Positions 7,509 to 63,100 of a stretch of 64,000 nucleotides of DNA are shown here, in pieces. The notes beneath the pieces are model-generated. The model made no database searches, was not told where the DNA came from, and saw nothing but the letters and a program-made list of their open reading frames with translations. The DNA is taken from contig JBGAWA010000001.1 of NCBI GenBank assembly GCA_044227805.1, positions 43,740 to 107,739 of the forward strand. The letters run 5' to 3'. The first letter of the stretch is position 1. The number at the start of each line of letters is the position of its first letter. The stretch comes from Chitinophagales bacterium. GTDB lineage: Bacteria > Bacteroidota > Bacteroidia > Chitinophagales > UBA10324. The position numbers and the translations under genes are program-made.

Positions 7509-7883
7509 ATGCTTAATACCATGGCTATCCCTTCAACCCCAATTTTCAACAGAAGGGTAACGCAATATTTCAAAGAACTACCTGAGGTGAGTGCCGTAGC
7601 CGTTTTTACTTCAAAATGCGTGTTGAGGAAATATCCTATCACCCTTCTTTTTGACTCTTCCGCAACCGGTTCTGGTCAGTCGAACTATGCACGAATCGGT
7701 AATATCGCTGATACACCCTGCACGCTTGTTCAGCATTGATACATACCGGCAAGTATTGAGATGAGTTGAGCGACACTTTGCTGTGTTTCATAGTGAGAAC
7801 CCGAATTATGTTACAGCAAATGGCACCAACTTAATGATATGAAGCCACTTTGTTTTAACTTCGCCGAAATTTGAGATTGTACC

Positions 7884-10556: not shown

Positions 10557-10582
10557 ATTACAGCATTAAAACAACCAATCAT

Positions 10583-12958
10583 ATGAGAATCGGAATTGCA
10601 GTCTGTTTCCTGCTGATAAGTATCATTCAACAGGCAAAAGCTGATGTGTTCGTTGTAATTAACAACCAGGACAGCGGCCCGGGATCACTGCGACAAGCCA
10701 TTACCGATGCTAACAACCATGCTGGTAGCGACAAGATTTATTTTGATATCCCGGAGGGTGATGTAGTTGCGAGAACTATTACGCTGCAAACCGTTCTTCC
10801 TGCACTGACCGGTCCAACCGTCATTGATGCTACCACGCAGCCTATGGGTAATTCATTCGGCATTTCTTATGCGCGCATTCAACTGACTGCGGAGGCAACC
10901 GGCCTTGGACAGGCTTTTACCTTTACAGCTGACTCCTGCGAAGCGTATGGATTCTTCATCAATAAATTTCAAAACGGAATTGTAGTTACCGGAACCTATT
11001 CAAAAGTAGGCGCCATTCAAAAAGGCAATGTGATATTCAATTGCAGCACAGCCGCCATTGATATTGAATTTACCAATCATGCAGCACTGCAGGGCAACCT
11101 GATTGGTGTGGATACCATGGGTGCGATGATGGCAGGTGCAACTGGTGACGGTATTAAGGTGGTGAATTCATACCTGGTAAGCATCGGCGGCAAAACATTG
11201 CTGGCTTACAATGTTATTTCGGGAAACAACAATGGCATCCGTTTGCAGAATGCCACATTTGTTGACATTAACAGCAATAATATTGGAACCAGTCCATCCG
11301 GGCTTCTTGCGCAGCCAAACGCTTACGGTATATACTGTACCGGCATCAACAATAATATCGAAGTAGGTGGCGATTCGCTGTTTGAAAGAAATCTTATTTC
11401 AGGAAATCTGAATGCCGGTATTTATGGTGTGCTTTCCAATTCAGCGATACAGGGCAATGTCATTGGATTAAACAGTGCCGGCGAAGCTTTAGGAAATGGA
11501 ACTTACGGCATCTATCTCACCTTCGGCTCATCAGATAATCTCATCGGAGGCGAATTACTGAAATCTAACGTGATAGCGAAAAACGGACAGGAAGCAATAG
11601 CTTTTCAGAACGGAACCTGTATTCACAATACAATTACAAGAAACAGCCTGTTCTGCAATTCAACTGCTTCCGGCAACGGCGGCATTAAACTTAATCAGGC
11701 AAACGGCGCGATTGCTTCTCCACAACTACTTGTGGTGACTCCGACAGGCCTTGCAGGCGCAACCATTCCGCTCGGTATCGTAGAAATTTTTACTAACGAC
11801 AGTTGCACTTTGTGTGAAGGAAGTTTATATCTGACAACCGTAACTGCCAATGCAAACGGGGTTTTCACCTATAATGCAACGATATCCGGATCCGTCACCG
11901 CCACCATTACAGATGCCATGGGAAACACTTCTTCATTTGCTGGTTGCGCAGATACAAGTTCATCCGTTTGCATCGTTGCAGAATTCATCACCACAGGATC
12001 TAAATGCGAGAACCAATTGATTTCATTTCTCGATCAGTCCGTTACCGAACCATCAACCAGCGTCAGTTCAAGGTTCTGGAATTTTGGTGATGGTGTAACT
12101 TCTACCTCTTCGTCACCTGTTCATGCCTATGCGACTCCAGGAACCTTTTCTGTCAAACTGATTGCTATCAGCGCAAGTGGTTGTACAGATACGATTGTGC
12201 ATGACCTGACTATCAATGCCGTTCCGAACGCTAATTACAATACCTTGCCCGTGTCCTGCACAGGAGAGGTCGTTCATTTTGATGATGCATCCAGCAGTGA
12301 TGTTACTCAGCGCTTCTGGGATTTTGGTGATGGTGGAACAAGCACCAGTACCAACCCATCGCATAGCTATGGTTCACCCGGAGTGTATGCCGTTACGCTT
12401 ACGGTAACCAATGCCTCAGGTTGTACTGATTCCAAATCAGGTAATATCGCTATAGCGCCGCAGCCTGTCGCCGGATTCACTGCCGTAGTTACCGATTTGA
12501 TGGTCAGCTTCACCAACACCTCCAGTTTTAACGGGCCACATTCCTTCTTCTGGAATTTTGATGATGGCAATACCAGTACACTCCAAAACCCGGAACATAC
12601 TTATGCTAATGCCGGGACCTACAATGTTTGCCTGAGCATTTATGATTCTGTTTGTCAGTCCGGAAGTATACTGTGCACCTTGATTGACGTGGTGACCGGT
12701 GTTGATGATCTGGCTTTGCATGAAACCATCAGCATTTATCCAAATCCTGCCAATAGTTACCTGGTTATTAAATGCGGCAATACTGCGGAAGAGATCCGAC
12801 TTACTACGATGGAAGGAAAAAATGTGCTTCATTTCATGAATCAGCAAGCTTTGCAGGATCCCCTTACACTTGCATTGCCTGCACTTGCTCCGGGACTGTA
12901 TCTTTTATATGTTGAAACAGATAAAGGAACCATTGCCAGGAAAGTGGTGATAAATTGA
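10583..12958 (+). CDS. paralogous secreted beta-helix repeat / 3x PKD / T9SS C-terminal-domain protein
   Basis: 791 aa with the same architecture and colinear motifs as 7884..10556 (GSLRQAITDAN, CTLCEG, GNTSSFAGC). It ends IYPNPANSYLVI...GLYLLYV. The gap to the upstream gene is 26 bp. Confidence 0.85.
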   Translation: MRIGIAVCFLLISIIQQAKADVFVVINNQDSGPGSLRQAITDANNHAGSDKIYFDIPEGDVVARTITLQTVLPALTGPTVIDATTQPMGNSFGISYARIQLTAEATGLGQAFTFTADSCEAYGFFINKFQNGIVVTGTYSKVGAIQKGNVIFNCSTAAIDIEFTNHAALQGNLIGVDTMGAMMAGATGDGIKVVNSYLVSIGGKTLLAYNVISGNNNGIRLQNATFVDINSNNIGTSPSGLLAQPNAYGIYCTGINNNIEVGGDSLFERNLISGNLNAGIYGVLSNSAIQGNVIGLNSAGEALGNGTYGIYLTFGSSDNLIGGELLKSNVIAKNGQEAIAFQNGTCIHNTITRNSLFCNSTASGNGGIKLNQANGAIASPQLLVVTPTGLAGATIPLGIVEIFTNDSCTLCEGSLYLTTVTANANGVFTYNATISGSVTATITDAMGNTSSFAGCADTSSSVCIVAEFITTGSKCENQLISFLDQSVTEPSTSVSSRFWNFGDGVTSTSSSPVHAYATPGTFSVKLIAISASGCTDTIVHDLTINAVPNANYNTLPVSCTGEVVHFDDASSSDVTQRFWDFGDGGTSTSTNPSHSYGSPGVYAVTLTVTNASGCTDSKSGNIAIAPQPVAGFTAVVTDLMVSFTNTSSFNGPHSFFWNFDDGNTSTLQNPEHTYANAGTYNVCLSIYDSVCQSGSILCTLIDVVTGVDDLALHETISIYPNPANSYLVIKCGNTAEEIRLTTMEGKNVLHFMNQQALQDPLTLALPALAPGLYLLYVETDKGTIARKVVIN

Positions 12959-13042: not shown

Positions 13043-13201
13043 TTGCCCAGCATTTTTAGTTTCAAAACATTAATGGGTTTTGGCCCGGCAAAGCTTTACT
13101 TTGGATTGCGAAACATTTTATTTTTTGAAAAATATGAGTAAAAGTTTTCCCGCTTCCATGACCGGCAACGCTGGATTTTTCAATGGAAAAATCCGGCTTA
13201 A
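13043..13201 (-). repeat. diverged copy of the 162-bp TIR/hairpin element
   Basis: Colinear by eye with the reverse-oriented element. CATTTTTAGTTTCAAAA corresponds to CATTTTGCAATTCAAAG, GCGAAACATTTTATTTTT to GTGAAACATTTTCTTTT, and CTGGATTTTTCAATGGAAAAATCCGGCTTAA to CGGGATTTTTCCACTGAAAAATCCGGGTTGAA. Confidence 0.5.
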
Positions 13202-13348
13202 TCAATTCGTACCTATATCTTTGCAGCCGTACCTGCTTTTGCAAAAACTGATTTTTTTATAGGCAGGCACTATGAATTTTACTGTTGAAAAGGCAATGTC
13301 TAATTTTAATCTAATAACTATTTTTTAACCGATACCAAACAACTACAC

Positions 13349-14677: not shown

Positions 14678-14973
14678 TGATTATTACATACGACTGGTCA
14701 AGTAATAAGTATTTGTCATTCAGTAAAACCGGCGTGCATTTCCTGCATGTTGCATTGCCCGTAAAATGAAAGACCTGTTCATCCTGGCAGGGTCTTCAGC
14801 AATGGTCTGCTCACTTCTTAAAGGCGACAGAATCAACTTTATAGAAAGTTGAATCCGACAGTATCCATTGCATGTCTTACATTTTTAACCCTGGTTTTCA
14901 ATTGAAAAAACCCGGGCTAAAAATATAGGCAAAATCATTATATCGCGGAATCAATTTGATATTTTTACAGGAC

Positions 14974-16392
14974 ATGCAACCCATTACCATCCATGAATTA
15001 AAAAAGGTAATCGCACTCAGCGATTTACCCGATGAGCACCTGCAATGGCTCCTCGATCATTCAGAAACCGAAGAATATGAAGAGGGATCGGTGATAATGA
15101 AAACCGGCGAAATACCTGAGTACATGGTATTCATTGTGGAAGGCAAACTTTCATTTTACATGAATAACAATGGAACACTGGTGCATTATATTGATTTTGC
15201 CAACGACGAATCCACCGGTGGCGCAACCGGTTTATTGCCTTACTCCAGGATGAAAGTATCACCGGGCTATTCTATCGCCAATGGAAAACTGCGCAGTATC
15301 CGGTTGCATAAGAAGCACTTTGCCGCACTCGAGCAACTCAACCCTGATTTGATCCAGCGGCTGATCGGATACATGACAGAACGGGCAAGGTCATTTGCCA
15401 CTACGCAACTGCAGCATGAAAAGGTGAATGCATTGGGCAAGCTTGCCGCCGGCATAGCACATGAATTGAATAATCCGGCTGCTGCCATCAACAGGATCTC
15501 CGCTGAGCTGAGCAAGCGCCTGGATGAAAATTACCTCCTGACAGAAAAACTGCTGCAATACAATATCAGTCCGGAGCACCTCCGCAATATCCGCAGCATG
15601 GCCAATGAAAAAGAAAAAGAACGCAATAGCCATCCGAAGCTCAGCCCTTTGCAGCGACTGGAAAAAGAAGATGAAATCAATGACTGGCTTCATGAACAGG
15701 GGCCTGACGCCAATAAACTGACAGGCGAAACATTTGCTGACGCAGGATTTTCGGGTGCTGATCTCGAGAGCATCAGGGAAGATGCAGGCAAGGAAGCTTT
15801 CATACCTGTACTTTACTGGATTGAAAATTTGTTAAGTTCTCAGCGTGTCATCAAGGACCTGCATGAGGCCTCCTCGAGGATTTCCAATCTGGTTGGTGCC
15901 ATCAAAAGCCATGTACACATGGATCGAACCGCTGATCTGCAGCTGACGGATATTCACCGCGATATTGAAAACACCCTTACGCTGCTGGGATACAAACTGC
16001 GGGAGAAAAATATATCGGTGAAAAAAATATTCGCGGAAAACCTTCCTCCCATTCCAGCCTATGTGGGGGAACTTAACCAGGTATGGAACAATATTATTGA
16101 CAATGCGATCTTCGCGATGCCCAGGCAGGGTGAGTTGATTATTGAAACCGGCTTCAACAAGAAGAACGCAAATGTTAAATTTATTGATAACGGTCCGGGC
16201 ATCAGCCCAGAAATACTGTCCCGCATTTTTGATCCTTTTTTCACCACCAAAAAAGTAGGAGAAGGAACAGGGATAGGATTAGACCTGGTGAACCGTGCCA
16301 TCAAACACCACAATGGAGATATTAAAGTAAACTCAAAACCAGGCAGAACAGAGTTTTTGATCTGTCTCCCGGTAACGGAAGCAAAACAGTAA
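14974..16392 (+). CDS. sensor histidine kinase with an N-terminal cyclic-nucleotide-binding-like (CAP_ED) domain
   Basis: Track ORF starts at TTG 14956; the ATG is at 14974. It has an N-terminal beta-roll-like segment (GSVIMKTGEIPEYMVFIVEGKLSF), the H-box LGKLAAGIAHELNNPAAAI, and the HATPase_c motifs NIIDNAIFAM, DNGPGI and GTGIGL. No TM segment is evident. Confidence 0.85.
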   Translation: MQPITIHELKKVIALSDLPDEHLQWLLDHSETEEYEEGSVIMKTGEIPEYMVFIVEGKLSFYMNNNGTLVHYIDFANDESTGGATGLLPYSRMKVSPGYSIANGKLRSIRLHKKHFAALEQLNPDLIQRLIGYMTERARSFATTQLQHEKVNALGKLAAGIAHELNNPAAAINRISAELSKRLDENYLLTEKLLQYNISPEHLRNIRSMANEKEKERNSHPKLSPLQRLEKEDEINDWLHEQGPDANKLTGETFADAGFSGADLESIREDAGKEAFIPVLYWIENLLSSQRVIKDLHEASSRISNLVGAIKSHVHMDRTADLQLTDIHRDIENTLTLLGYKLREKNISVKKIFAENLPPIPAYVGELNQVWNNIIDNAIFAMPRQGELIIETGFNKKNANVKFIDNGPGISPEILSRIFDPFFTTKKVGEGTGIGLDLVNRAIKHHNGDIKVNSKPGRTEFLICLPVTEAKQ

Positions 16393-20811: not shown

Positions 20812-21073
20812 TGAAATAAGCTGAAGCAGACTGTGGTTCGGAATATTCATTCCAAAGAATTTTGTTGTGGCAGCACAAGATGGAAAGTTACAGGCTGAAG
20901 GTGCAATTCGAATATGCCTTGTCGACGTTTATGGATCTTCAATCGGGATCTTATCCATACACGCTGATTCTACAGTTGAAAGCATTGAGGTGATTTCTTC
21001 TGAAATAAAGTTGTTCATGATTCATCAAATACTTTTTGAACACATGAGAATACGCAAAATATTGCTACACCCA

Positions 21074-21118
21074 GGTTAAACCCGTTGCTATTTTGAACTG
21101 CCAAAAATGCGGATTGAA
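21074..21118 (+). repeat. solo right-end fragment of the 162-bp element
   Basis: GGTTAAACCCGTTGCTATTTTGAACTGCCAAAAATGCGGATTGAA matches the right ~45 bp of the element. The sequence upstream is unrelated. Confidence 0.6.
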
Positions 21119-21205
21119 CACGACATTTATTTTGTAGAATGACCATTATCATTTTTCATGGCTTTCATCAGTGCTAATTTTATGCTGAATTAAAACTTTT
21201 ATGCC

Positions 21206-22323: not shown

Positions 22324-22485
22324 TTGAACCCGGATTTTTCAGTGGAAAAATCCCGCTTTGCTGCGACTTAGAACTGCTAAGGGTTTGCTCAATTTGTCAA
22401 GAAAAGAAAATGTTTCACAAACCCTAAGCAGTTCTACGTCGGGGTTAAACCCGTTGCCGCTTTGAACTGCAAAATGTGGGTTGAA
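22324..22485 (+). repeat. 162-bp TIR/hairpin element, copy 1
   Basis: Direct sequence identity with the four other copies. It has terminal inverted repeats, a left hairpin and a long central stem. Confidence 0.9.
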
Positions 22486-31635: not shown

Positions 31636-31780
31636 AAAGCCGCATTTTGCAGTTCAAAATAATAGCGGACAGAAACCTGGCCTGGCGTTGCAAAGGTTTT
31701 GAAAAACGTTTGACTTTTTTAAAGCAGCAACAGCACCTTTGCTGCTCAACCATTCAGTGGAACTAATTTTTCAGTTAAAT
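31636..31780 (-). repeat. strongly diverged copy of the 162-bp element (tentative)
   Basis: CCGCATTTTGCAGTTCAAA matches the element's right TIR in reverse orientation. Internal GCAAAGGT / ACCTTTGC arms flank an A/T-rich loop. The far end is poorly alignable. Confidence 0.35.
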
Positions 31781-31816
31781 ATTCAGGATTAGAGTTACCA
31801 GTCAATAGCATTGATC

Positions 31817-36974: not shown

Positions 36975-37089
36975 AAGAATAAAATTTTGGGTTAAGAAAT
37001 AAATACAAAGCTAAAATAGCATTTTTTTAATTCGTAGGGTGAAAAAAATAGTATTACAGCTTCATTGGGAGGTTATGATCAACAGCGTG

Positions 37090-37214
37090 TTGAACCCCCT
37101 ACATAACACCGCTAAAAGTTTGCAAAACATTTCCTTTTACTGTAAAAATGAGCAACCTTTTAGCAGATCATTGTCGCAGCGAAGAAGGCTTTTTCCAGAT
37201 TAAATCCGGATTAA
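37090..37214 (-). repeat. diverged, internally shortened copy of the 162-bp element
   Basis: TTGAACCC ... GCTAAAAGTTTGCAAAACATTTCCTTTT ... GAGCAACCTTTTAGCAG ... GTCGCAGCGAAG ... GGCTTTTTCCAGATTAAATCCGGATTAA is colinear with the reverse-oriented element. The stem positions are changed in a compensatory way. Confidence 0.6.
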
Positions 37215-39115: not shown

Positions 39116-39277
39116 TTCAACCCGGATTTTTCAGTGGAAAAATCCCGCTTCGCTGCGACTTAGAACTGCTAAGGGTTTGCTCAATTTGTATAGAAAAGAA
39201 AATGTTTCACAAACCCTAAGCTGTTCTACGTCGGGGTTAAACCCGTTGCCGCTTTGAACTGCAAAATGCGGGTTCAA
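39116..39277 (+). repeat. 162-bp TIR/hairpin element, copy 2
   Basis: Direct identity with the other copies. It lies 75 bp downstream of the DtxR-family gene stop. Confidence 0.9.
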
Positions 39278-49267: not shown

Positions 49268-49376
49268 AATGCCTGCCTGTTTGACGAAAGACCACAATCT
49301 GTAAATCATTGCACCTTAGCAGGGACGGCATGCTGAAAACTATTTCCGGCTTCCTTCTTCAACCCCCATTTTTAAG

Positions 49377-49539
49377 TTCAACCCGGATTTTTCAGTAGAA
49401 AAATCCCGCTTCGCTACGACTTATAACTGCTAAGGGTTTGCTCATCTTTTTCAAGAAAAGAAAATGTTTCGCAAACCCTAAGCAGTTCTACGTCGGGGTT
49501 AAACCCGGCGTCGTTTTGAATTGCAAAATGTGGGTTCAA
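49377..49539 (+). repeat. 162-bp TIR/hairpin element, copy 3
   Basis: Direct identity with the other copies, although it is the most substituted of the five. A 16-bp duplicate of the left end lies at 49358-49373, and an inverted left-end module lies at 49631-49672. Confidence 0.9.
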
Positions 49540-49860
49540 AGCAGCAGCAGATTTAACCTGAAGCTGAACTGTTTATGGTTTATGATTTTTTTCCTTTATG
49601 AAAAGGACCAACCTCTTGGCAGTTCTTTGATGCAGCGAATCGGAAATTTTCAATAGAAAAATCCAGGTTCCATGCTGACTCAAGCGAAAGCGGTAAGCAT
49701 GAATAAAAATCGAAATTCATATCATTCTGTAAAGCAAATACACCTTTCAGTGCGAATGATCAACGTCACTTTCCGGCATGACTAAGATCATGTATTGGCA
49801 TACCGGAGCAGCCTACTTTTGAGTATAATTTCCTCTCTCCAAAAACCAAAATTTACTACT

Positions 49861-51855
49861 ATGAAAACAAGATTTTTAGTGCTCATGATCAGCACACTGC
49901 TGGCGACAGGTGCCAGTGCCCAATGGACCATTGACTCATTAGGCATTGCCGGTTTGTATCCATACAGTGCAGCAACCACCAGCAAAGCCGTTTTCACCAA
50001 TGGCAGCAACTGGGATATATTCGATGCCAATACCAATCTCCATACAACCGGCCTCTTATCATTTTCAAGACCACAAATCAGAGTGGTTAGCTATGGTGAG
50101 AAGGTGTATCTCGGTGGTGGCAAATACGGTTATTTCGCCGACCCGCAATACTCCAAAAATGTGGATGTATACAATGCAGCAACCGATAGCTGGACTACTT
50201 TATTTCTAACAAAGAACCGTGAAGTGGGCGGTGCAGGTGCAGCCGGAAATAAGATTGTATTTGCTGGTGGTACAGGCCGGACTGATATCAGCGGACCGGT
50301 ATATATGTATGCTACCGCTGATATTTTTGACGCTAACACCGGAGCAAGAACTACCGGAAAACTTTCCAAAGCACGTTCGAATATCGCTGTTGGAGCGGCT
50401 GGCAATAAAATAGTTTTCGCCGGCGGCTGGTTTTGGGATATGAGTTACAATCGAGTGCCTTCCAATGCAGTGGATATTTATGATGCTTCTACAGGAACTT
50501 GGACCAAAACAACGCTGTCACAAAAACGGGAAGACCTGGCTGTTGCTGTGGTAGGAAACAAAATTATTTTCGCCGGCGGAAGCAGCAATGTTGGAACGGT
50601 TAAAAATGTAGATGTGTACGACGTATCCACCGATACCTGGACGACTTCTATGCTGCCTACTGCCAGATATGCCATGAAATCAGCAGTGGTGGGCACCAAC
50701 GCCTATTTTGCAGGTGGTGCCTTTGACGCGATAGAAAATGAAGTTGACATTTATAACACCGTGACCAATACGTGGAGCACGATCTACATGCCGGTTTCCT
50801 TATCTTCCTTTTCGATGAGTGTGATTAACGACAAAATATATTTTGCCGGTGGTTATATTTCATCTTCTTCTGTTTATTCAAACCTCGTACAGGTTTACGA
50901 TCCGGCCACCGCAACATGGATTAGTGACTATCTGTCGATCGGAAGAATCGGTATTGCAGCACTCGTTTGCGGCAACAAAGGATATTTTGCAGGAGGAACC
51001 ATTGCCTATGGCTATCCTGTTCCGCCAACAACCAAGAGGGTTGACATACTCGGCACACTCAGTCCTATCGCTGATTTCAGTGCAAACGTCACCAACATCA
51101 CTGCCGGTCAATCTGTAGATTTCACTGACCTCAGTACCAATACTCCATCGTACTGGACCTGGACGTTTACAGGCGGCACGCCTGCTTCCTCATCCATCCA
51201 AAATCCATCGGTGGTTTACAATGCAGCGGGCACTTATGATGTTACGCTAACCGCTGGTAATGCAGTTGGTTCAAGCACCATCACCAAGACAAGTTTCATC
51301 ACCGTAAATCCTGCTCCTTGCCTATTCCCGGATGGATTAATCACAACGGATATCACCCCAACCTCCGCCACCTTTAACTGGAATGCAGCCAATGGAGCTA
51401 TCAAGTATAAACTGAGTTACAAGGTCAGTGGAAACAATCCATGGTTAACTACCACGGTTACCACCAATACCCTTCAGTTGAGCGGACTGGCGCCTAATAC
51501 CAACTACAACTGGAAAGTAAAAACCATTTGCAGCAACTCGCCCAGCATCAGTTCTGATTTCTCGCCTATCGCGAGTTTCAAGACAGGGCCTGCCAGGCTG
51601 ACGGAACCAACCATGCAAACGGGCATTGAAGTTTATCCTAATCCTGTAGGTGACCAATTACAAATTTCGTTAAGCAATGAAATGACATTCCCGCTCACCT
51701 GCATGATTTATGATTTATATGGGAGAATGCTGATATCGGCTAAAATTGCAGAACCGCTCATAACGATAGATGTGAAGGATTTAGCTTCAGGAAATTACTT
51801 CATCACGGTTGTGAGCGCAGATAACCAAAGATGGAGTGCGAAATTCATGAAATAA
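49861..51855 (+). CDS. secreted Kelch-repeat / PKD / FN3 protein with a T9SS C-terminal sorting domain
   Basis: Track ORF starts at 49795; the ATG is at 49861 with a signal peptide. It has about 7 repeats of GNK(I/V)xFAGG...DIYD..T..W, then one PKD unit, one FN3-like unit, and VYPNPVGDQLQI...GNYFITV. Confidence 0.85.
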   Translation: MKTRFLVLMISTLLATGASAQWTIDSLGIAGLYPYSAATTSKAVFTNGSNWDIFDANTNLHTTGLLSFSRPQIRVVSYGEKVYLGGGKYGYFADPQYSKNVDVYNAATDSWTTLFLTKNREVGGAGAAGNKIVFAGGTGRTDISGPVYMYATADIFDANTGARTTGKLSKARSNIAVGAAGNKIVFAGGWFWDMSYNRVPSNAVDIYDASTGTWTKTTLSQKREDLAVAVVGNKIIFAGGSSNVGTVKNVDVYDVSTDTWTTSMLPTARYAMKSAVVGTNAYFAGGAFDAIENEVDIYNTVTNTWSTIYMPVSLSSFSMSVINDKIYFAGGYISSSSVYSNLVQVYDPATATWISDYLSIGRIGIAALVCGNKGYFAGGTIAYGYPVPPTTKRVDILGTLSPIADFSANVTNITAGQSVDFTDLSTNTPSYWTWTFTGGTPASSSIQNPSVVYNAAGTYDVTLTAGNAVGSSTITKTSFITVNPAPCLFPDGLITTDITPTSATFNWNAANGAIKYKLSYKVSGNNPWLTTTVTTNTLQLSGLAPNTNYNWKVKTICSNSPSISSDFSPIASFKTGPARLTEPTMQTGIEVYPNPVGDQLQISLSNEMTFPLTCMIYDLYGRMLISAKIAEPLITIDVKDLASGNYFITVVSADNQRWSAKFMK

Positions 51856-51875
51856 AAAGTGTAGCGTTTTAGTTT

Positions 51876-51911
51876 AAAAAAAAACGGCAGCGAACCTGCC
51901 GTTTTTTTTTT
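51876..51911. terminator. bidirectional rho-independent terminator
   Basis: A9, CGGCAG, loop CGAAC, CTGCCG, then T10, starting 20 bp after the stop of the Kelch gene. Confidence 0.8.
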
Positions 51912-51932: not shown

Positions 51933-52094
51933 TTGAACCCACATTTTGCAATTCAAAGCGGCAACGGGTTTAACCCCGACGTAGAGCTGCTTAGGGTTTG
52001 TGAAACATTTTCTTTTCTTGACAAATTGAGCAAACCCTTAGCAGCTCTAAGTCGCAGCGAAGCGGGATTTTTCCACTGAAAAATCCGGGTTGAA
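51933..52094 (-). repeat. 162-bp TIR/hairpin element, copy 4 (reverse orientation)
   Basis: Its reverse complement is near-identical to copies 1, 2 and 5. It is followed by an extra ~33-bp duplicate of the hairpin end module at 52095-52128. Confidence 0.9.
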
Positions 52095-52323
52095 CCAGGA
52101 AATTTCCATTGAAAAATCCGGGTGAAAGGAAATCGTTATATCAAATTGGCTCTATTACTTATCTGCATCCAGCCATGCAAGGATATGACAACACAGCTCA
52201 ATGGTAATCAGGTTAATCTTCCCGGAACTGGTTGTCGGCAAGCCTTCAAATAAAAGAGTGTTAAAATTACTATACAGGTAGGATACACCGGCATCCATGC
52301 AAAAAACCTTGCTTATCCTGAAT

Positions 52324-52822
52324 TCATATCCGCATCCGGATCATATAACCGACATCATTGTTTCCCCAGTTGCCTGTTGTTATGGATGCGACAGGCGAAG
52401 GGTCGGGCGCCGCTTTGTTATAGGAAGTGTAAGCTGCCAGGCCACAGCCCGTTTTTGCGTAGAAGTTATTCTTATCGAACGGAAAAAAACTTATCGTAAA
52501 CAGGAAGGCATTGCGTCTCAATTTATCTGATAACATATCCGGCGTATTATCGAATGCCTGCCAGGCCGGTGATACAGGTTAGCGGTTCCGAGGGCTGTCT
52601 CTAACCGGTGATTGAAACAAAACCGACCTTCGCTGAAAAGCTTATGCCGGTTTACAATCCCGACTCATATACACTTTTCATGGGTGAAGCCATTCCAAAA
52701 CCGGGAGCGATGCCAATCACAAACCCTCTTTCGACAACCGGTGCAGCTTGTTGCGCCATCAGGTGTTTCATCATGAAGATGAATAATAGTGCAATAAACA
52801 AGAGACGATTACAGCTACTCAT
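52324..52822 (-). pseudogene. disrupted gene for a signal-peptide, OM-like protein
   Basis: ATG 52822 gives MSSCNRLLFIALLFIFMMKHLMAQQ... and then an in-frame TAA at 52652. The same frame continues TGISFSAKVGFVSITG and hits a TAG. The remaining beta-strand-like ORF piece (52324-52536) is in another frame. Confidence 0.4.
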
Positions 52823-52933
52823 TTCTATGTAAGCTAAGTTGCATTCACGTTACCATTTAACTTTATAAGCTGTTCATTTCCAGAACCTTCTTGTAAGTCC
52901 CGTATTGATTAATCATTGCTGCCAAATCCAAAT

Positions 52934-53500
52934 TCAACATAGCCATTCCATTTTTTCCATAGCTGAGTTGCCAAACGGGTTCAGCTGACCTGCCGGAATA
53001 AGGCCGGCACTTAATGTTCCCGCAGGATTTATGGTACCATGGCTACCAACACTGCCGACACCTATGGACAGACCGGAATAGAACACAAAGTTTTCACGCT
53101 GGCAATAGCGGTAATCAAACCTCGCGGTGATATTCGTAACAGTATAATGGTTCTCATAAGCTTCCGGGTCTGTTCCGACTAAAGTGATGGCTTCTAAAGA
53201 CAACTCACCTCCTACGCTGATGCCATGTGATAAAAACCTGTTATAGCCTGCTCGAAAAATACCACTGCTCTGTATATCAGGTGGCGCATAAAACATAATG
53301 GTAATGGCACCGGAAAATTCAAGCATGACATCAGCTAAGGATGCGCGGCCATAACCTGCATACACTTCATTTTTAGGGGCAAGAGGGATTGCACTCTGTG
53401 CGAAACAACAGCCTGCCGCAGGCAGTAGCAGCCACAATATGGCAATAGCACTGTATAAAACCTTCCATCGAGCCCTTACCGGTATCCACCATGTTTTCAT
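52934..53500 (-). CDS. OM beta-barrel-like protein, probably with a frameshifted C-terminus
   Basis: 188 aa with a signal peptide (…GCCFAQ). The end ...AMEKMEWLC is atypical. After the A6 run (plus-strand T6 at 52951-52956), another frame reads WNGYVEFGFGSND and stops at 52909. Confidence 0.5.
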   Translation of the reverse strand: MKTWWIPVRARWKVLYSAIAILWLLLPAAGCCFAQSAIPLAPKNEVYAGYGRASLADVMLEFSGAITIMFYAPPDIQSSGIFRAGYNRFLSHGISVGGELSLEAITLVGTDPEAYENHYTVTNITARFDYRYCQRENFVFYSGLSIGVGSVGSHGTINPAGTLSAGLIPAGQLNPFGNSAMEKMEWLC

Positions 53501-53797
53501 ATTTCATCCGGCGCCATGCGGTCGCATTAATTTGAAAATTTTTTCTCCACCGCTATTGGCCACTTCAAAAAGCGGGTTGGAGCAACTCCAAAAAAAGCGG
53601 ACAACATTCTTAGGCAAAATTCCAACACAATGGACATCAGAAAAATGATATAAATTAGGAAATGCGTTTATGCAATACTATTGTACAACACATCATAGCA
53701 TTCATAGACTACTACACTGTACTTCGCTGCCGTTCTTAGCAAATGACAGATTACAGAAGCCGCTTGCAGATATGAAAAAGTAAAAGCAAGGTAGTCA

Positions 53798-55950
53798 ATG
53801 GTTCAGCATTTACTGTTATTTTACCAACCATTTCCAATACCAAATTCAAAAACGCCAGCAGTGAAAAGTGAAATCATTCTACTTGCCTTCGTTTTTCAGT
53901 GCATCTCCTTCCTACTGATTGCAGGTGATAAACAGCCGGTATTTTTTCTTAACGATTCGCTTTTGCATCAGGCAACACCCTTCAGAAATTCATACTTAGA
54001 AATTGTCCACAACTGGAGATATAAAAGCGACAGTTCGGGTGCACAGGCTGCCGATTTTGCAAGCCCTGATTTTGATGACAGTTTATGGGAACCCGTAAAT
54101 TCAACATTACCTATTGACAGTTTGCCGGCAAGCGGATGGCGAGGCAGCGGATGGTTCCGGCTGCGCCTTGTAATTGATTCTCAGTTATTGAATAAGGCAC
54201 TTGTGATAAACCTGATACACTATGGTGCATCAGACCTTTATGTTGATGGAAAACTTTTGTACAGCTTCGGACATGTCGGCACTTCCGTTGCGGATGAACA
54301 AGGTTATTCTTCCTTCACTCAAGCACCGGGAAGTGTGGTATTTAACCAATGTGAGCATGTTATTGCAGTCCACTATTCCGGTTTCTGCATCCTTCATCAC
54401 CGGCCACCGATTAAACGTGAACTGGGTTTTTCACTGGCTATCGGAGATCCCGATCTTGTAAACAGGCAACTTATCAGGGCAACGCGTTTTTCAAACCGGA
54501 GGCATTAAAGGTTATTGCCGTACCCTTCATATTTGCATTGATTCATTTTATTTTATTCCTGTTCTACCGCAGGGAGAAAAAGCAACTTCATTTTTCTCTT
54601 TTGCTCGTTATTGTTTAACGAGAACAGAATCGTTCGCCAGTCGTGATGCTGAACTGTCACTTATCGTTGTGAAGATCGATGATAATCTCTACCTGGCGCT
54701 GATGCCGGTTACAGGTATCCTGTCTGCGGTATTCTCTTCCGGCAAGGTGATACCGTTTCAGTTTTATAATTTCCTGGTGGTGGCCATAGTAGTGGCCATA
54801 ATTTCCTGGTATTCTTCGGTTTTGCCCGGTTTCACTTCGTGGCTCTTCCGTTGTCAACAGGCAGAAATGCTCAGACGGTAGCAGTGTCCATCCGGCAAGG
54901 CATGCAGGGAGCATGGATCATCGGCACCGGCTTCGGCGTTTTTGCGAGCGTCCAGCACCTGCTCGCGGAGGCATACTTCAACCGGCAATTTTTCACTGTT
55001 GCAGCTTCCGGTACCGTTGACCCATTCAACTCAGGTATTACCCGCATTGTTGTCGATGTCTGTATCTCTCCATGCGCATTGCAGGAACGCACCGGACGCT
55101 TGAATCGCAGATGAAAAAAACGATGGAGCTGGAGATTGAAAATGCCCGTAAAGAAGCCGAACTGAAAAAAGCGGTGGAATTGCAAGAAGCCTATCATGCC
55201 CTGGAAAACGCGCATCGCACATTAAAAGAGACACAGGCGCAGCTGATTCATTCGGAAAAGATGGCATCACTCGGTGAGCTGACAGCCGGCATCGCCCATG
55301 AAATTCAAAATCCGCTGAACTTCGTCAATAATTTTTCTGAAGTAAACAAAGAACTGATTGGCGAGATGAGGCAGGAAATTGAACAGGAACACTATGAAGA
55401 AGTAAAAGCCATTTCAAAAGACATTGAAGAAAACGAAGAAAAAATCAACCTGCATGGCAAACGTGCCGCCGCCATCGTAAAAGGGATGCTGCAACATTCA
55501 CGAGGCAGCAGCGGCGTGAAAGAGTTGACCGATATAAATGCTTTGTGCGATGAATTCCTGCGATTAAGTTATCATGGATTACGGGCGAAAGACAAGTCAT
55601 TCAACGTGACGATGAAAACAGAATTTGACGAGTCAATCGGCAGTAGCAATATCAATCCACAGGATATCGGACGGGTGATCCTCAACCTGCTCACCAACGC
55701 TTTTTACGCGGTAAATGAAAAAAGAAATCAGGCATTGAAAATTATGAACCTACCGTCACGGTGAGCACGAGGAAGAAAGGTGACAAAACAGTCATCTCCG
55801 TTACGGATAACGGCAATGGGATTCCGCAGAAAATTGCCGACAAGATTTTTCAACCGTTTTTTACGACGAAGCCTTCCGGGCAGGGTACCGGACTGGGGCT
55901 TATCATTCGACATCATCACCAAAGGTCATGGCGGTGAATTGATTATTTGA
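53798..55950 (+). pseudogene. 7TMR-DISM-type sensor histidine kinase, pseudogene 1
   Basis: A DISMED2-like N-terminal domain (FDDSLWEPV...GWRGSGWFRLRL...DLYVDGKLL), TM segments, the H-box SEKMASLGELTAGIAHEIQNPLNF and HATPase_c ([15 protein letters not shown]) are spread over at least 5 frame changes. Confidence 0.8.
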
Positions 55951-56020
55951 AACAAAGGAAAATGAGCTTTACACGGTTTACGATAACCTTGTAATTTTAA
56001 TAGCTGCTAAAGTCATTCGT

Positions 56021-57400
56021 ATGTCCCCAACTCTTGCATCTCTGCTGGTCAGTTTGCTCATGTCGCAACGGCTTCGAAAGTATGCAAGTGCCAACAACAA
56101 GAAAGGTTGGGAATTTTTATTTACGGTCAACCTCTTTTTTTCATCGATTTTGTTCTTGACGCAGTTCGCCTTCCACTCTCCCATGTTCTTCAGGCTGGTT
56201 TGGGACGTATTGCTCGTCTCTATCAGTCACCTTTATGCTGAAAAAGGAGCTTCGTCCATTAGAGATGTTTACTTGGGCGTTTATTCCGTTTATCGCGGTG
56301 TTGGTGGCAGGCCACCTCGCCGAATTAATAAGCGTTGATTTCTACAATGAATGGATCACCTATTTTACCAATGTAAGGACGCTCATGCTGATCTGGATGG
56401 CTGCCATTTTATTCAGCCAAAACCGACAGCAAAAGCGCTGGAAAAAGAACGCATCAGGAGACAAAAAAAGATGAACTGAACAGGGCAATTGCCTTGCGAA
56501 AGGTGGAGCTGGAAGGGTTGGTTGCGGAGCGTACGCTGGAACTGACCGGGCAGAAAGAAGAGTTACAACGAACGCTGACGGAGTTACGCAGCAGCAAAAT
56601 CAATTGATACAATCGGAGAAGATGGCTGCTAGTGAGCTCACCGCCGGCATCGCACATGAAATACAAAACCCTTTAAACTTCGTGAACTAATTTTTCGGAA
56701 GTGAGCAATGAGTTACTCGCCGAAATGAGAACCGAGCTGACCAATGGCCATACCAAAGAAGCTATGGCGCTTGCTGCTGATGTGGGTCAAAATCTTGAAA
56801 AAATCATTCATCATGGTAAGCGTGCCGACGCCATTGTAAAGGGAATGCCGCAACATTCGCGCGCCAGCACCGGTAAGAAAGAACTGACGGATATCACCGT
56901 GCTGGCTTGATGAATACCCCCGCAGACTCGCTTACCACGGCCTGAGGGCGAAAGACAAGTCCTTCAATGCCACCCTGAAATCAGACTTCGACCCGTCGCT
57001 TGGGAAAATAAATGTCATTCCGCAAGACATCGGCCGTGTTATTCTCAATTTGCTGACCAATGCATTTTATGCCGTGATGGAAAAAAAGAAAATGACCGGC
57101 AACCAATCGCCTGTATCGGCGTATGAACCCTCCGTCTCGGTCACAACCAGAAAAGCAGGTGGCAAAGCGGAGATCAGCATCAGCGATAATGGCAATGGAA
57201 TTCCAAAACAGGCAATGGATAAAATATTTCAACCATTCTTTACCACCAAGCCAACCGGCCAGGGAACAGGGTTAGGACTTTCCATTTCCTACGACATTAT
57301 CACGAAAGGCCATGGCGGCGAACTGACTGTGCATACCGAGGAAGGAGCGGAACGACCTTTACTATTACTTTACCAGCCTCATAAAATAAAAACTACGTGA
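56021..57400 (+). pseudogene. paralogous sensor histidine kinase, pseudogene 2 (no DISMED2 domain)
   Basis: TM pieces, a coiled coil, the H-box SEKMAASELTAGIAHEIQNPLNFVN followed by a stop, and HATPase_c ([16 protein letters not shown]) lie in several frames. An alternate frame from 57349 reads GTTFTITLPAS-stop, the canonical terminus. Confidence 0.75.
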
Positions 57401-57771
57401 TGAAAATACTGGTGGTTGATGATGAGCATGATATTCAATTGCTCTTTGAACAGCGTTTCAGAAAAGAAATTCGGGAACACCAAATGGAGTTCGCTTTCAG
57501 CTTTTCAGGTGAAGAGGCATTGTCTTATCTTCATCAGCATCATCATGAAGCTGTACTCATTCTTTCAGATATAAACATGCCGGGCATGAGCGGCCTTGAG
57601 TTGCTGAAGCATATCAAGCAGGAGTATGCAACCCCCCCTCCCGTGGTGATGATCATTACCGCATACGGTGACGAGGAAAACTACAAACGGGCTAAATCAG
57701 CGGATGATTTTCTCACCAAGCCACTCGACTTCACTGCATTAAAGCAAAAACTGAAATCCAGAATCCTATGA
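57400..57771 (+). CDS. stand-alone response-regulator receiver (CheY-like), intact
   Basis: MKILVVDDEHD..., LSDINMPGMSG, ITAYGD, LTKP. All receiver hallmark residues are present. Confidence 0.85.
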   Translation: MKILVVDDEHDIQLLFEQRFRKEIREHQMEFAFSFSGEEALSYLHQHHHEAVLILSDINMPGMSGLELLKHIKQEYATPPPVVMIITAYGDEENYKRAKSADDFLTKPLDFTALKQKLKSRIL

Positions 57772-58812: not shown

Positions 58813-58973
58813 TAAACCCGGATTTTTCAGTGGAAAAATCCCGCTTCGCTGCGACTCAGAACTGCTAAGGGTTTGCTCAATTTGTCAAGAAATGAAAATG
58901 TTTCACAAACCCTAAGCAGTTCTACGTCGGGGTTAAACCCGTTGCCGCTTTGAACTGCAAAATGTGGGATTAA
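58813..58973 (+). repeat. 162-bp TIR/hairpin element, copy 5
   Basis: Direct identity with the other copies. Its outermost TIR bases are degraded (TAAACCC... and ...GGGATTAA). It lies between convergent gene ends. Confidence 0.9.
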
Positions 58974-60143: not shown

Positions 60144-63100
60144 CTATTTATTCTGCTGAAGCGGTAGAAGAATAATGAATTCCGTGCCTGCTCCCGGTTC
60201 ACTTTTCACCTCAATTTTTCCATCGTGCTTTTCAATGATACCATAGCTGATTGATAAGCCAAGTCCTGTTCCTTCGCCGACTTGTTTGGTCGTGAAGAAC
60301 GGATCAAATATGTGCTGCTTGATTTCATCAGTCATCCCCTTTCCGGTGTCTTTAATCGAAACAATTACCTGATTATTGCTGACACGTGTTGCAATAGTAA
60401 TTTTTCCCTGCGCGGGAATAGCCTGTATGGCATTATTGAGAATATTGAGGAACACCTGGTTTAACTGTCCGGGATAACATTCAACAAGTGGTAAATCACC
60501 GTATGATTTTACAATTTCGATGCGACCCTTTGTTTTATTTTGCAGGATCGTAAGTGTGGAATCGAGCGCATCGTTCAACTGTGTCATTTTCAATTCACTC
60601 TCATCTGTGCGGGAGAAATTACGCAGTCCCTTAACGATTTCTGTAGTCCGCCTGGCTCCTTCATCAATTCCCGAAAGCAGCTTTCCAATTTCATCCACAA
60701 TCAGCTTCAGGTCAGCATGCTCCCTGAGCTTAATTAATGGCTGCATGGCCTCATCATTCCTTTTTTGATCAATTACCGCATCATACTTGTTGATCAGGTC
60801 AAGCAGTTCGCCGATATCATTTCGCAATGGCGTTACATTGCCTGAAATAAAATTGATAGGGTTATTCAATTCATGGGCAATGCCGGCCGTTAACTGTCCA
60901 AGTGATGCCATCTTTTCTGACTGCACCAGGTGTGATTGCGCCTGCTTGAGGTCATCCAGCGTTTTCTCCAATTCTGCCGATTTATTTTCGACCTTCTGCT
61001 TCTCCAGCTCAATCACTTCTTTCTGATGCAGCACCTGGCTGGTACGTTCCTTCACCGTTGATTCCAGCCTCAGCTTTGCTTCTTTATACCTCCAGACATT
61101 GATCCTCACAATGGCTACTATAGCGAGATACCCAAGCAGAATATAAGTCAGGTAGGCCCACCATGTCCTGTACCACGGCGGAAGGATCACAAATTCAAAA
61201 ACAGATTCACTGCTTTCAATACCATACAGGTTACGCGACTTCACCTTAAACTTATATTCCCCTTCATGCAGGTTGGTGAACTCTTTCTGTGTGGCATTGC
61301 TCCATTCAGACCAGTTAGTGTTTCTGCCTTCCAGGATAAAAGAATATTCCGGAGACTCTTTGGCATTATAGGTGGCTGCTGAAAAACGAAAGGCGATATC
61401 ATTCAATTCATAAGGTATCCTGATGGCAGGCACGTGCGGAGGGGCATTTGTAAAATATCCTGCCGTATTGGTGAAACTGCCGAAAAATATTGTTGAATCA
61501 CCATTAAGTTTTACTGAACGGATAAAACAATTGAAATCAAGCGGCTGGCCGGAATCATGTGCCGGGTTGTAAACAAAAATGCCTTTCTCGCTTCCGATCC
61601 AAATGTAATTTCGCGCATCGCAGAATATACTCCAGACACCTGCTACCGGAAGCCTCGCCAGCGGAACGGTATCCCAAGTTACCGTTCCGTTCATGTATCT
61701 GACAATACCTGTACGTTTTTCAGAATGAACAAGGATATTTCCTCTGCGATCTTCACTGATGACGCTCGCTTCCCTTGTATGCGCGGCGAGCAATTTGCCA
61801 AATGAACTGTCCTGGGAGATCTGCTTTAGTTTTTCATTATAAGAATAAGTGCCTTTCCAGGTTCCGAAATATATTTTATTCCTGACCTTAGAAACCTCCA
61901 ACACCACTAACTCATCTCTCCATCCATGCGACTTGTCTAATGCAATTACTTCTGGATTCAGGTTGATGGTGCCTTGAAAGTTAATCAGGAAGCCACATCC
62001 ATATCCTCCTGCCCACAGCCTTCCAACGGAATCGAACTGTAATGTCTTAATGTCCGATGTTATTCCGTTAATCATACCCATCAACTTCCAGGCCTGCCCA
62101 TTTGGTTGCTGCATGATGCCAATGCCATCTTCCAGTCCGAGAAATACATATTCAGCGTGGAGGGTATCATGTAAAATACATGAAACTCCTTTCGACAAAA
62201 TATTTTTGAAATGTTTTCCGTCATAAACGAGCAGGCTGTCACCACAGCCAACCCAGATACCATCAGGCATCTGTTTCACCACCCACACCTTGCCAGAAAT
62301 CTCTCCCAAGCGTGATACCCGGATAAAATCTTCATTCAGACTGGCCTGGTAGAAACCATTGGTAGTTCCTGCATACAACATGTCGTTAACCCGGCAGATT
62401 GCCAGCACGGTGCCGTCAAGTCCATTGGAATAATCAATAAACGACACGCTGGCGGGATACTCAATCCTGCTTAGTCCGCTGGAAAGGGCAGCCCAGATGC
62501 CATGGTGCTTATCTTCAAAAAGTCCATTCACCTGGTTATCGTTCAGTCCTGATATTTTATTCACTTTTTTAAGCAGTGATCCGCTTTCGCTGATAAAGAA
62601 AACACCTTCCGTTTCTGTTGCCAGCGCAACAGGGCCTGCACTCAGCCTGATGGCTGCATTGATCCTGATATGGATAGGCGATCCGATGGATAAAGCAACC
62701 GACAACATTTTTCCTTTCGCGTCAAACAGGAAAACGCCCTTATCGGCCGTAACTACCATCAATTTATTCTCACCACTCTTTTTATCTTTTATCCTGAACA
62801 TTGTTACGATGTCGGGATTGCCCGGTATAGAAAATGGCCATGTCAATATTTTTCCTTTCACGATATGATAAATACCCTTATCCGTTTGGAAACAGAGTTC
62901 ATCATCAAGCAGCCAACTTGCGCGAAAATCTCCCGGAAGTTCCAGCTTACTGATACGGTGCTGATCATACAGCAACAGGAAATTTTTGGCAATGAAGTAA
63001 ACGGTATCGTGGACGACGTCAGTTTTCAGAACTTCAAAGCTGGAATCCTTTGAGGCTAACAACTCCTTCAGCGGATAAAATACTGTTTGCCCAACGGCAT

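Follow-up and report, generated by a model that had tools for sequence, protein, structure and literature searches.

The stretch at positions 51933-52094 of the window (the whole 64,000-nt piece of Chitinophagales DNA that was analysed) holds one copy, here called copy 4, of a palindromic repeat that is a MITE recently multiplied in an uncultured Bacteroidota genome. The change of an A-T into a G-C pair in the central stem of this copy is an inherited subfamily marker, common to at least four loci. According to the reading that we favour, to which a probability of roughly three in four is given, pairing has been kept at most in the propagating lineage of this MITE and the host does not keep up the hairpin as an RNA. 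Pairing of the two arms, or equally their identity, would matter at most for copies that still propagate; after insertion, the hairpin would not be maintained by the host at individual loci and the copies would decay neutrally. Possible routes to the paired change are selection of a DNA hairpin or cruciform in transposition, two symmetric subterminal protein sites, and mutation templated by the first substitution. The biology as it stands is ordinary, and both the kind of element and hairpin-preserving changes in small palindromic mobile repeats have already been described. The family itself is previously undescribed, belongs to an uncultured Bacteroidota lineage and has an unusual 5-bp TTNAA duplication.

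Copies, ends and insertion sites of the MITE

Copies of the repeat were collected by way of its translations. A search of these in a protein database returned 21 spurious 'proteins', each with a different N-terminus derived from the flanking DNA. The DNA around the spurious ORFs was fetched (loci L011-L039, from the MAG GCA_964600605.1 and several ENA metagenome assemblies) and a sequence-only nhmmer profile was applied to ~356 kb, which yielded 18 young loci, all distinct, and a further ~11 that are diverged or fragmentary. The young loci have a mean column identity of 97%; 5 young and about 5 old copies lie in the window, and young and old alike are intergenic. The near-identical stretches of the four young copies other than copy 4 start at 22327, 39119, 49381 and 58815. 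A complete genome is expected to hold an estimated one hundred or more copies. Many of the extra loci stem from short-read metagenome assemblies and are possibly chimeric over 152 nt, with the covarying sites just 59 nt apart. The copies, fragments and hairpins of the window that are referred to below are the following.

51938 to 52089, minus strand: copy 4, of the G-C subfamily; covariance-model score 201.5 bits, full length (1-152)
51933 to 51937: first target-site duplication of copy 4, TTGAA on the plus strand and TTCAA in the orientation of the element
52090 to 52094: second target-site duplication of copy 4, TTGAA
51978 to 52053: central hairpin of copy 4, with arms at 51978-52001 and 52030-52053, conserved T·C and A·A mismatches and a loop of ~30 nt
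52062 to 52086, minus strand: hairpin 1, a terminal hairpin of 9 bp, GGATTTTTC-AGTG-GAAAAATCC, at the 5' end of the element
52095 to 52125, minus strand: solo 5'-end fragment, CCCGGATTTTTCAATGGAAATTTCC, directly abutting copy 4
22329 to 22480, plus strand: copy 1, with the consensus stem; TTGAA duplication at 22324-22328 and 22481-22485
39121 to 39272, plus strand: copy 2, with 3' arm GCTGTTCTA and a T·T mismatch at pair 7; TTCAA duplication
49382 to 49534, plus strand: copy 3, with 5' arm TATAACTGC, a loop variant; TTCAA duplication; inserted in an older copy
58817 to 58968, plus strand: copy 5, with 5' arm CAGAACTGC and a C·A mismatch at pair 1; flanks ATAAA and ATTAA
49540 to 49668, minus strand: d6, an older diverged copy split by copy 3; remaining 3' end at 49363-49376
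37059 to 37210, minus strand: d5, a diverged copy with pairs 13 and 14 changed from G-C to A-T, the A·A mismatch changed to A-T and the outer stem broken
13047 to 13197, minus strand: d9, strongly diverged, with hairpin 1 intact and a central palindrome of different sequence
31639 to 31788, minus strand: d11, strongly diverged, with the inner palindrome GCAAAGG/CCTTTGC
21057 to 21122, plus strand: fragment consisting of the 3' end only

The element is 152 nt long (151-153 nt among the young copies) and reads CCCGG...GTGGG. It is bordered by imperfect inverted repeats with the sequences CCCGGATTTTTCAGT and ACTGCAAAATGTGGG, and comparison of CCCGGATTTTTCAGT with the reverse complement of the right end, CCCACATTTTGCAGT, gives identity at 12 of 15 positions. 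The MITE is a quasi-palindrome overall, as it matches its own reverse complement over the full length with ~45-50 bits. Conservation is lower in the terminal inverted repeats than in the internal palindrome, a pattern not usually seen in MITEs derived by deletion.

All frames of the MITE are interrupted by stops, with longest open stretches of ~45-47 codons, and two nearly open frames cross the repeat. The ORFs called over it in public assemblies contain no Pfam domain. By Pfam, no transposase, the Y1/HUH type included, is present among the 40 ORFs of the window, and the ~356 kb (window Pfam and gene tables of L011-L039) yielded no autonomous element whose ends match. Searches of the plasmid (PLSDB) and phage (INPHARED) collections by blastn in distant mode gave no match to the repeat. 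Rfam 15 gave none at gathering thresholds, and with an E-value threshold only sub-threshold chance matches of miRNA-like and sRNA-like kind appeared. The exact pattern of hairpin 1 occurs 0 times in genome, metagenome and viral contig collections, and the only match of the 3'-end pattern in metagenome contigs (L027) lies within coding sequence and is due to chance.

Mobility is documented by the flanks. Identical 5-bp flanks border 15 of the 17 scorable young copies and differ in sequence from copy to copy (TTCAA, TTGAA, TTTAA, TTAAA, TTTAT, ATCAA and ATTAA, with the consensus TTNAA). These 5-mers are true target-site duplications at a TTNAA-like target, and the span 51933-52094 comprises exactly the copy 4 element and both its duplications. 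Two nested insertions with duplications provide evidence for past movement of the repeat. In the window, young copy 3 sits within the 3' part of the ~30%-diverged copy d6, bordered by a TTCAA duplication, and once copy 3 and one TTCAA are removed, d6 aligns end to end with the consensus. In L013, a G-C copy (L013:10098-10249) splits an older copy, d10, in its loop, again at TTCAA. Short, non-coding, multi-copy and intergenic, with a fixed-length target-site duplication, terminal inverted repeats and a history of mobility, the repeat has the properties by which MITEs are recognised. It may be mobilised in trans by a DDE-type transposase that is encoded elsewhere and makes cuts staggered by 5 bp; the one feature that points to such an enzyme is the fixed length of the duplication.

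The MITE leaves traces in public records, where short-read assemblies break at its edges. NCBI and ENA gene calls render it as hypothetical proteins of 40-81 aa, which are spurious read-through ORFs in two frames (P0001-P0021; for example L011:10001-10237, L013:10001-10234 and window 49438-49656). Such calls are a useful handle for locating copies of the MITE. Two Logan contigs (L002/L003, with ends at window ~22351) stop ~25 nt into copy 1, and their breaking at the repeat edge points to a multi-copy repeat in a de Bruijn assembly.

Other solo fragments of hairpin 1 are found at L011:5415-5464 and L017:8937-8983. Weak covariance-model matches of 13-30 bits (L022:19443-19539, L038:3805-3882 and window 7538-7622, 13170-13252 and 14855-14915) could be ancient remnants of the family or could be due to chance. 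The comparisons of L038 with L039, L029 with L031 and L036/L037 with L028 show two kinds of discordance: short-read contigs that agree in one flank differ in the other, and one locus has two different loop variants depending on the sample. Either the assemblies are chimeric across the 152-nt repeat, or copies have undergone recombination or gene conversion with one another. The ORFs of the window are chromosomal Bacteroidota genes, among them those for GldD, RNase E/G and T9SS C-terminal sorting-domain proteins with PKD or Kelch repeats, and related loci carry SusC/SusD pairs.

The paired change in the central stem

The central stem described in the original prediction is present and proved longer than had been stated, with 22 Watson-Crick pairs and a loop of ~30 nt. 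It is built from CGAC/GTCG, a T·C mismatch, ten pairs (TAGAACTGCT), an A·A mismatch and eight pairs (AGGGTTTG). The two strands of the element are predicted to fold as RNA with -72.1 and -70.2 kcal/mol (z = -7.7 and -6.7), and as DNA the value is -44 kcal/mol.

A joint change of both arms from A-T to G-C had been claimed for copy 4, and direct reading of the sequence bears it out. The arm at 51982-51990 reads TAGAGCTGC and contains G51986, and the partner arm at 52041-52049 reads GCAGCTCTA and contains C52045; the consensus has TAGAACTGC and GCAGTTCTA, respectively. The changed pair is pair 5 of the 19-position central stem. A pattern search of the window retrieved both arms of copy 4 and no further G-variant arm. 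The companion statement that copies 1, 2 and 5 have consensus arms is true of copy 1 only. The 5' arm of copy 5 reads CAGAACTGC, in which a T-to-C change leaves a C·A mismatch that had been overlooked; the same pair-1 C·A variant occurs in three other loci. The uncompensated changes ascribed to copies 2 and 3 do exist, in the 3' arm (GCTGTTCTA) and the 5' arm (TATAACTGC), respectively; they had been placed elsewhere in the stem, whereas that of copy 2 sits within the quoted 9-mer.

The pair of arms TAGAGCTGC/GCAGCTCTA is present at four loci with unrelated flanks, namely copy 4, L013:10098-10249, L017:10062-10213 and L034:1-151, of which the L013 locus is reproduced in four independent assemblies and the L017 locus in five. 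A double change private to copy 4 is rejected on this ground. Pair 5 is A-U in 13 of the 18 young loci, G-C in 4 and affected by a deletion in 1; none of the loci is half-changed. The identical double at four loci and the complete lack of intermediates point to a single origin and spread by transposition: the double change would have arisen once in a source copy and then been carried to further loci. As one inherited event is concerned, it would be pseudo-replication to count each of the four copies as an observation. More generally, a 'compensatory' pair seen in one copy of a dispersed palindromic repeat may be an inherited subfamily marker, so that copies are not independent observations for covariation tests.

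How readily such a double arises by chance was assessed by randomisation. The 37 substitution events of the 18 young loci were redistributed in 200,000 trials, in which the distributions over copies were kept and the position and derived base were randomised. A perfectly linked compensated double was obtained in 4.1% of the trials; the share falls to 0.23% if presence in at least 2 loci is required. This result is suggestive and rests on a single evolutionary event noticed post hoc.

The other variants of the young loci are of a different kind. Pair 5 is the sole covarying pair, and 22 of 31 pairs are invariant. Uncompensated variants of pair 1 are common to several loci (T to C in 4, copy 5 included, and T to A in 2). 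Changes confined to single loci comprise a G·T at pair 2, a T·G at pair 6, mismatches at pairs 3 and 7, and one 1-nt deletion. Altogether 11 of the 37 substitution events fall in paired columns, which make up 62 of the 152, and the rate is thus about the same as elsewhere.

Pairing in diverged copies and rival explanations

In the diverged copies, one-sided changes prevail. A MAFFT alignment contains 126 of them and 32 both-sided changes, against 27 expected under independence, and 13 of these 32 are Watson-Crick, near the expected one-third. An alignment made by the covariance model, which leans towards structure, has 84 one-sided changes; both-sided ones number 34, where 22.5 are expected, and 23 of the 34 are Watson-Crick. 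The excess of both-sided changes in this alignment may reflect some real constraint on pairing, at one level or another. Single copies provide examples. In d5 (37059-37210), GG has become AA together with CC to TT, so that pairing is kept. The copy at L011:19178 and the split L013 copy have an A-T to C-G change at pair 4 and the classical intermediate G·T at pair 5. This G·T is retained in the older copies d4 and d10, the latter being the split L013 copy.

When all 29 sequences are considered, 86% of the cells are paired and the both-sided pairs number 12, against 5.8 in shuffles (1 of 500). Sliding the partner columns by 1-3 positions gives 10-16 both-sided pairs, as compared to the 12 of the true partners, and covariation scores of 0.04-0.07, as compared to 0.117. 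The covariation signal of the whole family is weak, and relatedness alone can yield a signal of such size. RNAalifold, applied to the whole family, predicts 0 pairs in one orientation and, in the other, 14 pairs with an energy of -6 kcal/mol and a covariation term of ~0. Folding in both orientations, which had been proposed as a way to find the better-supported strand, revealed no conserved structure and favoured neither strand. For the whole family this comes close to the lack of significant covariation that the original prediction had named as speaking against it, and the young copies show one pair that goes back to a single event.

Coincidence, that is two independent neutral substitutions at partner positions in the ancestor of the subfamily, is an improbable account of the double change. 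It would fit a single event found post hoc, the 4% of the broad randomisation and the similar both-sided counts of the slid-partner controls in the full alignment (10-16 vs 12). A shared, perfectly linked and complementary double has, however, a probability of 0.23%, and the diverged copies hold additional compensated pairs.

The wider claim that the hairpin itself is maintained survives in part. The double change does keep the pair, two independent neutral hits are an unlikely source of it (0.23-4.1%), and some diverged copies are compensated; on the other hand, a single inherited event is concerned, the other shared variants are uncompensated and old copies have changed mostly on one side. 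The share of events in paired columns (11/37), the mostly one-sided changes of old copies and the lack of a conserved structure by RNAalifold argue against upkeep after insertion.

The same observations bear on a role in the host cell. A host-level structured RNA, for instance an sRNA, a 3'-UTR stabiliser or a processing site, with the hairpin under purifying selection at each locus, is about as improbable as coincidence. One could invoke the very stable predicted folds (z = -7.7, -6.7), the one compensated pair and the fact that comparable repeats such as bcr1 are reported to be transcribed and to carry compensatory changes (PMC3184786). This explanation is at odds, however, with the decay of old copies, chiefly through one-sided changes, with substitution rates that are alike in stem and non-stem columns, and with the lack of both an Rfam match and a family-wide structure by RNAalifold. 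It would also predict a preferred strand. The mismatch cells comprise 33 G·T vs 31 A·C in the MAFFT alignment and 22 vs 15 in the covariance-model alignment, A·C being the wobble of the other strand, and G·U shows no asymmetry over A·C. Orientation with respect to flanking genes is random: in tandem contexts, 4 copies are co-oriented with the neighbouring genes and 5 opposed, and all others have convergent or divergent neighbours. A strand-specific RNA was rejected, as neither mismatches, folds nor gene orientation show any asymmetry. Nothing in the data discriminates between RNA and DNA or favours either strand.

Templated mutation, through template-switching in the quasi-palindrome or gene conversion within the element, would have copied the first substitution into the other arm, with no selection involved. 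Gene conversion from a single palindromic template had been named in the original prediction as an alternative. It is compatible with the identity of the repeat as a MITE and is a rival only as to why both sites changed. Template-switch mutagenesis of quasi-palindromes is established in E. coli (PMC7202029), and template switching has been proposed as a source of apparently compensatory changes in hairpins (PMC8794818). In terms of the arms both changes are identical, TAGAACTGC having become TAGAGCTGC on both; half-changed young copies number zero, and the two adjacent pairs that changed together in d5 (GG to AA with CC to TT) look like a single templated tract. The same process should, however, erase the A·A and T·C mismatches, and these persist in all 18 young copies as well as in several diverged copies. 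Moreover, the uncompensated pair-1 variants have spread to 4 and 2 loci uncorrected, and d4 and d10 keep the G·T at pair 5. Persisting mismatches and spread one-sided variants argue against a very efficient templated correction, and we regard templated mutation as a possible but not a likely origin of the double.

The arms might instead serve as symmetric protein sites. Placed at positions 36-59 and 90-113 of the 152, each ~40 nt from an end of the element, they would bind the same transposase or host protein as double-stranded DNA, and pairing between them would be of no consequence. The symmetric placement, the match of the whole element to its own reverse complement (~45-50 bits) and the fact that wobble is not preferred over A·C (33 vs 31), as if pairing were irrelevant, are in agreement with this proposal. 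Yet the conserved A·A and T·C positions make the arms non-identical, one-sided variants of pair 1 have propagated to several loci, and no cognate protein is known, so that symmetric sites appear doubtful as an explanation.

A comparably doubtful proposal is that the central palindrome is required for transposition, for example as a cruciform or single-strand hairpin recognised by a transposase that makes 5-bp duplications. Source copies would then compensate via G·T, the state seen in d4 and d10, and inserted copies decay. Such a hairpin-dependent mode is not typical of DDE MITEs, and in a further variant the hairpin may act as RNA in both orientations. If the hairpin is needed for mobility, this MITE family would be a tractable system for structure-dependent transposition. 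For the linked double of the MITE subfamily, hairpin selection, symmetric protein sites and templated mutation cannot be separated from sequence alone, as the complementarity of the arms is inseparable from their identity or from templated mutation.

Related elements and neighbouring features

Bacterial MITEs such as Correia/NEMIS, Nezha, ERIC and RUP, as well as MITE239/293/464/700 and BrickBuilt of P. gingivalis, resemble the element described here in being short, non-coding, intergenic and multi-copy, and in having terminal inverted repeats, target-site duplications and a long stable stem-loop (PMC3184786; PMC4596501). Most of the named families have target-site duplications of TA, 2-4 bp or 8-9 bp, whereas here 5 bp are duplicated at TTNAA. 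The P. gingivalis MITEs, which also come from Bacteroidota, differ from our element in their ends and duplications (PMC4596501). Unlike the named bacterial MITEs, our element is more conserved in its internal palindrome than at its termini.

REPINs, which are doublets of REP sequences mobilised by RAYT, are likewise palindromic and non-autonomous, and their hairpin belongs to the replicating unit. They are associated with a RAYT (Y1/HUH) gene and are not known to make target-site duplications. In the present element 5-bp duplications are the rule, and no RAYT-type gene is found among the 40 ORFs of the window. A REPIN/RAYT or IS200/IS605-type element was rejected, as the two flanks carry matching, true target-site duplications whose sequence varies. 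Compensatory changes on both sides of the hairpin have been described as common in REPINs (PMC3116915).

Duplications of 5 bp are also known from the IMU and NFM2 MITEs (PMC3184786). MITEs of Tn3 type, or TIMEs, have the 5-bp duplication in common with our element. The Tn3 family makes AT-rich target-site duplications of 5 bp, and its ends, about 38 bp long, begin with GGGG. A Tn3-derived TIME is not supported, as the ends of the repeat, read from outside, are CCCGG and CCCAC instead of GGGG.

Of the known repeats, the one most closely analogous is bcr1 of the Bacillus cereus group, a dispersed and apparently mobile repeat of ~155 bp with 5-bp direct repeats (TTTAT motif) and without transposase, for which compensatory base changes that preserve the double-stranded structure have been reported (PMC3184786, PMC6542083). 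The likeness includes the size and the 5-bp duplications, and one of the copies described here is also flanked by TTTAT. The host of bcr1 belongs to the Firmicutes and not to the Bacteroidota, and bcr1 is reported to be transcribed. The relation to bcr1, with which our element was compared by description, is one of analogy and not of membership.

Some other features of the window were noted. Between the Kelch/PKD T9SS gene at 49795-51855 and copy 4, just after the gene and 20 nt before the copy, lies a terminator-like hairpin (51868-51911; A9-CGGCAG-CGAAC-CTGCCG-T10) that looks bidirectional. A consensus terminator scan did not report the hairpin at 51868-51911, presumably as the A and T runs extend its stem. 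The region 52100-57700 contains few genes recognisable by Pfam. The 77-nt units of the direct-repeat family D2 (9897-12627; 62-75% identity) coincide with PKD domains arranged in tandem, which are encoded by two adjacent genes for secreted T9SS sorting-domain proteins (7884-10556 and 10583-12958). Further diverged repeats of 72% identity, which are distinct from the MITE, link 55569-55723 with 56932-57086, 55229-55322 with 60850-60943, and 15410-15476 with 60859-60925, and are probably paralogous histidine-kinase segments.
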